4,689 nucleotides of DNA from a virus (lineage: Duplodnaviria > Heunggongvirae > Uroviricota > Caudoviricetes): the IMG/VR virus record IMGVR_UViG_2667527792_000010. The stretch is one strand, 5' to 3'. Made by a program: the position numbers and the translations under genes. The notes beneath the pieces were generated by a model, which did no database searches, was not told where the DNA came from, and saw only the letters and a program-made list of their open reading frames with translations. Below, one piece after another: positions 2,812 to 4,689 of the stretch (position 1 is the stretch's first letter; each line of letters begins with the position of its first letter).

Positions 2812-3205
2812 AGCGGTGCCTTATGTCCGCAATAACCCGGACAAACTGCATCTGTTTGTGGATAACGGTTCGCTGGTTGCCACGGGGGCCAGCTCCATGT
2901 CGTGGGAGTACCGTTACACCCTGAACGCGGTGATTGAGGATTTCAGCGGCGACCAGAATCTGCTGATGGCCCCGGTTTTGCTGTGGCTGAGGGATAACCA
3001 GCCCGATGCCATCAATAACCCGGCGTTACGGGAAAAACTATTCACCTTTGAGGTGGATATTCTGCGCAACGATGTCTGTGATATCAGCCTGAACCTGCAA
3101 CTGACGGAGCGTGTGCTGGTCAGCACTGACGGTAGTGTGTCGAGTGTTGAAGCTATAGCGGAACCTGATGAACCTGAAGAAATGTGGACGGTGAAACGTG
3201 GCTGA
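2774..3205 (+). CDS. R: Phage tail completion protein R (P2 gpR-like)
   Basis: GTG at 2774 with AGGAG (2762-2766) at 7-nt spacing. The N-terminus (VNKPQSLRHALNKAV...NPDKLHLFVDNGS) resembles P2 gpR as I recall it. Conserved position after the lysis cassette. The ORF-track TTG at 2753 is an in-frame upstream alternative, less likely. Confidence 0.8.
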   Translation: MNKPQSLRHALNKAVPYVRNNPDKLHLFVDNGSLVATGASSMSWEYRYTLNAVIEDFSGDQNLLMAPVLLWLRDNQPDAINNPALREKLFTFEVDILRNDVCDISLNLQLTERVLVSTDGSVSSVEAIAEPDEPEEMWTVKRG

Positions 3206-3644
3206 ACTGCAGAAGGTGGACGACTGGCTGAGTGCCTTGCTGGCGAATCTGGAACCAGCCACGAGAAGCCGCATGATGCGCCAGCTGGCGCAGGAACTGC
3301 GCCGGACACAGCAGCAGAATATCAGGATGCAGCGCAATCCAGATGGCAGCAGTTATGAACCGCGCAGGGTAACAGCACGCAGCAAGAAGGGGCGCATCAA
3401 ACGTCAGATGTTTGCAAAGCTGCGCACCACAAAATACCTGAAAACTGCCGCCAGCACCGACTCTGCCAGCGTGCAGTTTGAAGGCAAGGTGCAGCGCATT
3501 GCCCGCGTTCACCATTACGGCCTGCGAGATCGCGTCAGTCGTAAGGGACCGGAGGTGCGTTACGCAGAGCGTCGCCTTCTGGGTGTAAATGATGATGTTG
3601 AGGCAATGACCCGCGACATGATTCTGCAATGGCTGGCGGGGTGA
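3198..3644 (+). CDS. S: Phage tail completion / virion morphogenesis protein S (P2 gpS-like)
   Basis: GTG at 3198 overlaps the R stop by 8 nt. The 148-aa basic product is close to the roughly 150 aa I recall for P2 gpS. Position between R and V matches P2 order. The exact start is uncertain because the RBS is weak. Confidence 0.75.
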   Translation: MAELQKVDDWLSALLANLEPATRSRMMRQLAQELRRTQQQNIRMQRNPDGSSYEPRRVTARSKKGRIKRQMFAKLRTTKYLKTAASTDSASVQFEGKVQRIARVHHYGLRDRVSRKGPEVRYAERRLLGVNDDVEAMTRDMILQWLAG

Positions 3645-3648
3645 TCTT

Positions 3649-3666
3649 TGTATCAGCACTGATACA
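3649..3666 (+). promoter_or_regulatory. TGT-N12-ACA dyad, candidate Ogr/Delta-type activator site of the P2 late promoter for the V-W-J operon
   Basis: Seen directly: TGT (3649-3651), 12 nt (ATCAGCACTGAT, itself palindromic), ACA (3664-3666), in the 68-nt S-V gap. P2 late promoters are reported to carry a TGT-N12-ACA element centred near -55 and to lack a -35 hexamer; the S-V gap is the expected location of the V promoter. Confidence 0.5.
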
Positions 3667-3712
3667 AGTTGCAGCACTGCCGCCTTTCTTCCCCTGATGG
3701 CAACCTTTCCCT

Positions 3713-4291
3713 ATGAACGCACAATTAACCGAAATCATGCGCCTTATCACCAACCTGATCCGCACAGGGGTAGTCACCGAAGTGGACAGGGAAAACTGGC
3801 TTTGCCGGGTGAAAACGGGCGAGCTTGAAACCAACTGGATCAGCTGGCTGACGCTGCGTGCCGGGAATGCCCGTACATGGTGGCGACCATCGGAAGGTGA
3901 GCAGGTGGTGCTGCTGAGTCTGGGCGGCAATCTGGAAACCGCCTTTGCGCTGCCCGCTGTCTATTCGAATCAGTTCGCACCACCGTCGACGTCGGCGGAC
4001 GCCTGCGTGACAGAACATCCTGACGGTGGCTGGTTTGAATACGAACCCGCCACCGGGCGCTGGTATGTCAGGGGCATCAAATCCATGGTCATTGAGGCTG
4101 CTGACAACATCACCATGAAAACCAGTGAGTTTGTACTGGAGGCTGACCGCACGCGCATTAACAGCGAAGTGGTGATCAATGGTGGCGTTACCCAGGGCGG
4201 CGGAGCGATGAGTTCTAACGGGATCGTGGTTGATGCGCATCAGCATACTGGCGTCCTGAAAGGCGGCGATACAACCGGAGGCCCGATATGA
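3713..4291 (+). CDS. V: Phage baseplate assembly protein V (P2 gpV-like baseplate spike)
   Basis: 192-aa ORF. The N-terminal region (LIRTGVVTEVDRENWLCRVKTGELETNWISWLTLRAGNARTWWRPSEGEQVVLL) is characteristic of the Phage_base_V family and resembles P2 gpV as I recall it. The first in-frame start is ATG 3713, immediately after an in-frame TGA; no Shine-Dalgarno sequence is visible upstream. Confidence 0.85.
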   Translation: MNAQLTEIMRLITNLIRTGVVTEVDRENWLCRVKTGELETNWISWLTLRAGNARTWWRPSEGEQVVLLSLGGNLETAFALPAVYSNQFAPPSTSADACVTEHPDGGWFEYEPATGRWYVRGIKSMVIEAADNITMKTSEFVLEADRTRINSEVVINGGVTQGGGAMSSNGIVVDAHQHTGVLKGGDTTGGPI

Positions 4292-4689
4292 CGCTTTATA
4301 GCGGGATGAACAATACCAGCGGCAAAGTCATTACTGATATTGATCATCTGCGCCAGTCGGTGCGGGACATTCTGCTGACACCGCAGGGTAGCCGTATTGC
4401 CCGCCGGGAATATGGTTCCCTGCTGTCGGCACTGATAGATCAGCCACAAAATCCGGCATTACGCCTGCAGGTCATGTCGGCAGTGTATGTGGCGCTGAGT
4501 CGCTGGGAGCCACGGTTGACGCTGGATTCCATCACCATCAACAGCAATTTTGACGGTTCAATGGTGGTGGAGCTGACCGGGCGGCGGAATAACGGTGTGC
4601 CTGTGTCCCTTTCCGTATCGGCTGAAAGGCAGCCAGAAAATCAGTGCCACAAACAAAGCAATGAGCCAGAACAGCGGATCGCGCAACAT
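4288..4689 (+). CDS. W: Phage baseplate protein W (GPW/gp25 family), 3' end beyond the window
   Basis: ATG at 4288 overlaps the V stop (ATGA). The translation ([46 protein letters not shown]...) matches the GPW/gp25 family. The frame stays open for 134 codons to the window end, so the stop is not observed. Confidence 0.8.

Follow-up and report, generated by a model that had tools for sequence, protein, structure and literature searches.

Late gene transcription of phage P2 proceeds from four Ogr-dependent promoters, for which TGT-N12-ACA has been described as the consensus (PMC3931495). In the RefSeq record of P2, the distance between activator site and transcription start is 55–58 nt at these four promoters, and the resulting leaders are 40 nt long at O, 23 nt at P, 25 nt at F and 0 nt at V. 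The zero-length leader of V follows directly from the annotation: the feature designated “activator binding site; activation of pV promoter” (10239–10266, centre 10252.5) is located 55.5 nt from the V start codon, and transcription of the V operon starts at 10308, i.e. at the first base of the V coding sequence (10308–10943). Thus, V of P2 is annotated as a leaderless gene. The start mapping behind this annotation dates from the 1985 era and could be off by 1–2 nt. P2 has also been listed, with reference to Christie & Calendar 1985, as one of a small number of origins of E. coli leaderless genes (PMC4633059).

Here we report that the region between genes S and V of a P2-like prophage is very probably the ortholog of the P2 late promoter PV, with the V mRNA starting at A3713 and V being translated without a leader. 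A first-pass annotation, which was made from the sequence alone, had proposed a late promoter at this place. As the proposal matches both the P2 RefSeq record and the literature, it re-derives documented P2 biology: a PV promoter with leaderless V is a correct reading, already known from P2 and encountered here in a lineage of the Fels-2/500465-1 type. Comparison of sequences adds that the leaderless geometry appears to have survived dozens of independent exchanges of the promoter module, in phages of Gamma- as well as Betaproteobacteria.

The S-V gap and its palindrome

The window, as we call the entire stretch of 4689 nt that was analyzed, represents the late region of a P2-like (Peduoviridae) prophage, as judged from the sequence and the list of open reading frames. 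It comprises, in this order, the 3’ part of M, followed by L, X, holin, endolysin, a lysA-like gene, lysB/lysC, R, S, V and most of W. The open reading frame at 3198–3644 (plus strand) is a homolog of the tail completion / virion morphogenesis gene S (Pfam Phage_tail_S, E = 6.9e-42); its TGA stop codon occupies 3642–3644 and it is the last gene upstream of the S-V gap. Gene V (3713–4291, plus strand) encodes the baseplate spike of 192 aa, recognized by Pfam Phage_base_V and the GpV Apex motif, and is followed by a 3’-truncated W gene (4288–4619, plus strand) for the gp25-like baseplate wedge (Pfam GPW_gp25). The order of S, V and W matches that of P2 and 186, which have the V-W-J... operon order in common. 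Over positions 3100–4300, the closest annotated phage is Escherichia phage 500465-1 (98.3%), followed by a large set of Klebsiella phages (95–97%) and by Fels-2 and SopEPhi (~83%). At the protein level, V of the window is 99.5% identical to V of phage 500465-1 and ~43–46% identical to V of P2 and 186.

The sequence and the list of open reading frames confirm that S and V are separated by 68 nt (3645–3712), with the ATG of V at 3713. However, this is not the only sizeable gap, as the first-pass annotation had it, since 95 nt are left between the stop codon of M at 399 and the ATG of L at 495. This M-L gap (400–494 of the window; 99 nt at the comparable place in P2) contains the GC-rich, hairpin-forming sequence GTGCCCCCGCGCACGGGCGGCAC (~407–429), which is followed by no T-run.

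Within the S-V gap, the TGT-N12-ACA dyad noticed earlier is indeed present at 3649–3666 (TGTATCAGCACTGATACA; centre ~3657/3658), and it is the sole match to this pattern in the window. It is part of a longer perfect palindrome with arms of 9 bp, TTGTATCAG-CA-CTGATACAA (3648–3667, without strand assignment), whose centre at 3657.5 is 55.5 nt away from A3713 of the V start codon. Based on its sequence, its positional conservation and the consensus TTGTRY..RYACAA, this palindrome is predicted to be the binding dyad of an activator of the Ogr/B/Delta type. The bare pattern TGT-N12-ACA is expected 1.11 times per window and occurred at least once in 141 of 200 shuffled sequences. As it is thus expected about once per window by chance, its significance must come from the context.

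A second repetitive element had been pointed out in the gap, namely the direct repeat CAGCACTG. Its two positions (3654–3661 and 3672–3679) are correct, but neither its significance nor its conservation held up: 8-nt direct repeats are found in 2.4% of shuffled sequences and in 8% of the real 68-nt windows of the same sequence, and the element is absent from the homologous gaps of Fels-2-type phages. Being unremarkable by chance and missing from these gaps, the repeat was rejected as a functional element; its second copy (3672–3679, plus strand; -41 to -34) is probably incidental.

Conserved promoter geometry upstream of V

The region upstream of V was compared between 142 loci, consisting of the window, reference phages, 80 relatives from IMG/VR and 49 genomes of different species. 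The first scan of viral contigs yielded only relatives with V proteins of 97–100% identity, many of which have differing promoter and cargo modules; the scan of genome contigs was carried out with a narrow alignment of three V sequences. The S-V gap is 68 nt long at 77 loci, and about 40 of the 142 loci carry inserts of 550–1900 nt at this place, usually with a gene on the reverse strand. These cargo inserts bring their own DNA up to the ATG of V, and therefore clustering of the 45 nt preceding V resolved the 142 loci into 51 independent variants, which are unrelated at the 80% level.

TGT-N12-ACA centred between -54.5 and -57.5 (A of the ATG = +1) is present in 40 of the 51 variants, and in 26 of them it is centred at exactly -55.5. 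From the background density of the pattern, 0.027 would be expected. The dyad is conserved in related prophages. Apart from the key positions described below, the DNA between dyad and ATG cannot be aligned across the variants. Aeromonas LPM4 and Ralstonia RSA1 possess an N13 version of the dyad at -56, and Burkholderia vB_SR3 has one at -57. When cargo is located between S and V, as is the case for orf30 of P2 and in Cartapus, SEN8, RE-2010, RSA1 and others, the dyad remains beside V.

Reverse-strand cargo genes cluster at the S-V junction, a hot spot of insertion even among phages whose V proteins are at least 97% identical. The cargo includes genes for FRG-domain and PIN-domain proteins, a DNA methyltransferase (Burkholderia vB_SR3) and many hypothetical proteins; examples are found in loci L084 (2057–2587), L085 (2063–2998), L086 (2046–2897), L088 (540–1406) and L095 (304–1245). 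The right-hand boundary of the swapped DNA is located at the ATG of V or within ~13 nt of it.

An A at -11 and a T at -7 are invariant in all 26 variants with the dyad at -55.5 (26/26). The variants had been selected by means of the dyad, and these two positions played no part in the selection. In a sigma-70 -10 hexamer, it is these two bases that are critical, and they stand in the register that a transcription start at the A of the ATG would predict. When all 40 dyad-bearing variants are considered, A-N3-T is present in register 0 or -1 in every one of them (40/40; background 8.4% per position), and position -1 is a pyrimidine in 32. The sole conservation in the -35 region across the variants is a weakly conserved T at -35 (65%).

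In the window, the conserved A(-11)/T(-7) pair defines the predicted core promoter TGgCAACCT (3698–3706, plus strand). It contains the -10 hexamer CAACCT (3701–3706), in which A3702 and T3706 occupy positions -11 and -7, and a TG in front of the hexamer at -15/-14; only two of the six bases of the hexamer match the consensus, namely both key bases. The sequence at the -35 position, TGCCGC (3678–3683, plus strand), agrees with TTGACA at one of six positions, which means that, by comparison with the consensus, V is preceded by essentially no -35 element. In addition, a sigma-70 consensus scan called a promoter nowhere in the S-V gap. Both the missing -35 element and the missing promoter call are what would be expected for an activator-dependent promoter. 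The distance of 55.5 nt between the dyad centre and the ATG and the register of A(-11)/T(-7) fit a +1 position at A3713. From this geometry and from the annotated P2 start, transcription is predicted to begin at A3713, generating a leaderless mRNA with a 5’-terminal AUG (3713–3715, plus strand).

Predicted start site and translation of V

The first-pass annotation had noted that V is preceded by no Shine-Dalgarno (SD) sequence. Indeed, the calculated anti-SD duplex energy of V is -1.8 kcal/mol, the weakest value among the 11 genes of the window, whereas the other genes range from -3.8 to -10.3 kcal/mol and the W start exhibits a strong SD sequence (-9.5 kcal/mol). The same holds for the 40 dyad-bearing variants, in which anti-SD pairing in front of V (mean -1.64 kcal/mol) is close to that of shuffled sequences (-1.70 kcal/mol), as compared to a mean of -9.5 kcal/mol at the adjacent W start. 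V starts with ATG in 51 of 51 variants. A V start close to the transcription start implied by the dyad, which had been brought forward as pointing to possible leaderless translation, agrees with the position of the P2 transcription start on the first base of V. Leaderless translation, offered there only as a possibility, is already on record for P2.

The region between S and V contains no evident intrinsic terminator, and transcripts reading through from the upstream operon therefore probably also carry V. Since there is no SD sequence and the stop codon of S is 68 nt away, V should be poorly translated from such transcripts. The V protein (gpV) forms a trimeric spike, of which few copies are needed per virion. 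This low demand would fit inefficient leaderless translation.

In the proposed mechanism, a zinc-finger activator of the Ogr/B/Delta family would bind the palindrome centred at -55.5 and bring in the sigma-70 RNA polymerase of the host, for which the core promoter would be too weak on its own. In P2, recruitment proceeds through the C-terminal domain of the RNA polymerase alpha subunit, as defined by the rpoA109 mutation. Transcription from A3713 would then generate a V-W-J... mRNA for baseplate and tail-fibre proteins, which opens with the AUG of V. V would be translated by the leaderless route without an SD sequence, while W and the later genes would use their ordinary SD sequences. For the phage of the window, we infer the start nucleotide, binding of the activator and leaderless translation, whereas the sequence features with their positional conservation, the missing SD sequence, and the activator gene and matching promoters of a near-identical phage were observed directly.

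The reading closest to this mechanism also invokes a PV late promoter, but places the start a few nucleotides upstream of the ATG, so that V would have a leader of 1–5 nt and not be strictly leaderless. Start-site choice by RNA polymerase is flexible by ~1–2 nt, which speaks for such a short leader, as do the P2 -10 sequence (CAATCT), which is one nucleotide further away from the ATG than that of the window, and 9 of the 40 variants, in which A-N3-T occurs in register -1 only. However, in the window and in 25 other variants both the -10 sequence and the dyad are in exact register for an A at +1. Moreover, +1 is always an A and -1 is mostly a pyrimidine, which is the preferred context for initiation, and in the P2 record the start coincides with the A of the V start codon. 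Altogether, we consider a start upstream of the ATG unlikely, with a leader of 1–2 nt being conceivable above all in the register -1 variants. Even so, a leader of 1–5 nt has no room for an SD sequence and translation would still be SD-independent.

Much less probable is that the palindrome acts at the RNA level, as a hairpin or intrinsic terminator of the O-to-S operon, with V being expressed through read-through or reinitiation. The transcribed palindrome could form a hairpin of 9 bp, the window additionally allows an outer GC stem followed by UUUCUU, and a terminator is annotated after S in P2. Yet, the palindrome folds no better than shuffled sequences (z = -1.23; equalled by 23 of 200 shuffles), it is followed by no U-tract, and a terminator scan returned a weak candidate inside S only. 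The outer stem is not conserved in 10 relatives in which S directly abuts V; pairing is confined to the dyad, and the covariation term is +0.17. In addition, it is V rather than S that the dyad accompanies when cargo is inserted, and reinitiation across a gap of 68 nt without an SD sequence is unlikely. A search of the window for known RNA families (cmscan, E <= 1) produced only a chance snoRNA-like match at 3184–3233. We give next to no credence to the remaining view, according to which the dyad is a functionless chance match to a short degenerate pattern. It may appeal to the 1.1 chance matches expected per 4.7 kb, but it is refuted by the comparative data, i.e. by positional conservation in 40 of 51 variants; furthermore, the palindrome extends past the six specified bases and has counterparts at other late promoters of a near-identical phage. 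The PV promoter with leaderless V remains the most probable reading.

Exceptions to this architecture fit a simple rule: when the dyad is absent or displaced, an SD sequence appears. In loci L109 and L123 the dyad is located 13 nt further upstream, TATAGT occupies -25 to -20, and the predicted 13-nt leader contains a GAGGA SD sequence. Locus L119 lacks the dyad and has a GGGGG SD sequence. Where S overlaps V, as in the three phages 3LV2017, P88_4B11 and phiT5282H, the dyad is missing and SD sequences with pairing energies of -7.9 to -9.7 are present; in P88_4B11, where V is translationally coupled to S, the start codon is GTG. In the Xenorhabdus loci the dyad is centred at -81.5 relative to the V start, but an in-frame ATG located 27 nt upstream restores the spacing of -54.5 and the A(-11)/T(-7) register. 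V of these phages may carry an N-terminal extension of nine residues. In L137, L139 and L140, the upstream ATG arises because the first ~6 codons of V are duplicated in part (ATGAACACACAACTGAC...). True deviants are 186 and PSP3, which have a left half-site alone in the S-V gap and AGAGG at -18. The architecture is thus not universal.

The conserved leaderless geometry extends from enterobacterial phages to phages of Aeromonas, Ralstonia and Burkholderia. These comparisons suggest that leaderless initiation of the baseplate operon could be under selection across the family. Whether leaderless V is a deeply conserved, actively selected design of the Peduoviridae rather than a peculiarity of P2, a design in which P perhaps shares, we regard as evenly poised. 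If true, leaderless initiation would be functional, e.g. by keeping the dose of gpV low or by tying translation of the late genes to the translational state of the host. The swapped promoter modules amount to a natural mutagenesis, which leaves TTGTRY..RYACAA, A(-11), T(-7) and the ATG at +1 in fixed spacing as the key positions. In practical terms, prophages of the Fels-2/500465-1 type can be annotated with a PV late promoter in their S-V gap, and the V start at 3713 can be trusted despite the absent ribosome-binding site, which gene callers may penalize. The locus also lends itself to the study of leaderless translation in enterobacteria, since it is well defined and can be induced by an activator.

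Activator supply and comparison with known systems

Phage 500465-1, whose S-V gap does not differ from that of the window, encodes an Ogr_Delta protein of 72 aa (29211–29429; Pfam E = 9e-21) just after its homolog of tail gene D. This protein aligns with Ogr of P2 and B of 186 and exhibits the same spacing of four cysteines. In regions that correspond to DNA outside the window, 500465-1 carries further dyads, one between P and O and another preceding the sheath gene. The -10 sequences of its sheath (F; CAACAT) and scaffold (O; CAACCAT) promoters have the same distance to the dyad as CAACCT of V. The sheath and scaffold genes are preceded by leaders of ~30 nt containing AGGAGG and GGAG, respectively, as opposed to V, which has none. 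Judging from these sequences, the V promoter plausibly depends on an activator of the Ogr kind.

The dyad shared by the P and O promoters is centred, in phages of the Fels-2 lineage, exactly 55.5 nt away from the annotated ATG of P, the gene of the terminase large subunit (L097, 10194–10270, in 500465-1; L147, 1606–1750, in Fels-2; L148, 3667–3811, in Cartapus). Upstream of P in this lineage, TAGGTT/TATGTT occupies the A(-11)/T(-7) register, and anti-SD pairing is only weak (-3.6 to -5.6). In contrast, the same P/O dyad is centred at -78.5 in P2 and 186, resulting in a leader of 23 nt with an SD sequence. On sequence grounds, leaderless late genes of the Fels-2 lineage may include P in addition to V.

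The prophage copy in the window appears incomplete. Homology to all relatives stops at 4619 inside W, ~26 nt before the normal W stop codon, and the adjoining segment (4620–4689, minus strand) is the 5’ end of the host gene yehW, as it matches this gene of 4901 E. coli genomes at 98.6% identity. Either the prophage is truncated in W and joined to yehW, or an assembly artefact has created the junction; among the complete E. coli genomes of the collection, no match spanning the junction (4619/4620) was found. The window contains no Ogr_Delta gene, and in relatives the activator gene is located far downstream of W. Therefore, a copy truncated at 4619 has probably lost its Ogr gene, its activator probably has to come from another element, and the promoter may be silent in this genome. 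With its own activator lost, the promoter would be active only when an activator was provided by another P2-like phage or by a P4-type satellite, as the biology of P2 and P4 would lead one to expect.

The closest counterpart of the locus is PV of P2. In both phages, the activator site, annotated in P2 and predicted in the window, is located just upstream of V and centred 55.5 nt from the ATG; both have a weak core promoter, an SD sequence is absent before V, and V heads the V-W-J... order. Alignment with the P2 V promoter, which had been suggested as a check, bears out the geometry, but the sequences themselves cannot be aligned outside the key positions. The PV site of P2 is imperfect (TGT-N11-ACA or N14), whereas that of the window is a perfect palindrome with 9-bp arms including TGT-N12-ACA; the other P2 late sites (PO/PP, PF) differ as well, reading TGT-N12-CCA. 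Furthermore, P2 has the cargo gene orf30 between S and V, where the window has a bare gap of 68 nt, and the two V proteins are only ~43% identical. The known model of P2 late gene control remains unchanged by these data.

The annotated activator sites are located at 3057–3087, 10239–10266 and 17555–17583 in P2 (L001) and at 3798–3817 and 14091–14110 in 186 (L002). Those of 186 also read TGT-N12-CCA, and strict TGT-N12-ACA is present at none of the annotated late promoters of P2 or 186. The sites of the Fels-2/500465-1 lineage are much more symmetrical than those of P2 and 186.

Phages 186 and PSP3, which employ the activators B and Pag, resemble the window in having an activator of the family found in its relative 500465-1, an S-V gap of 68–69 nt and a -10-like element, GGCATTCT, before the V homolog. 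They differ in possessing only the left half-site (TTGTGTGAACCACCACC), accompanied by AGAGG at -18, where the window has a full dyad, and the 186 record annotates a promoter nowhere in the S-V gap. A search of the available literature on leaderless V or late promoters in P2-like phages and on p32 of 186 returned nothing directly relevant.

Beyond the P2-like phages, the predicted V mRNA resembles those of lambda cI, transcribed from PRM, and tetR of Tn1721 (PMC4633059): all derive from mobile elements, lack an SD sequence and have a 5’-terminal AUG, which for V is a prediction. However, cI and tetR are low-level regulatory genes expressed from lysogenic or constitutive promoters, whereas V of the window opens a late structural operon, the downstream genes of which have normal SD sequences.
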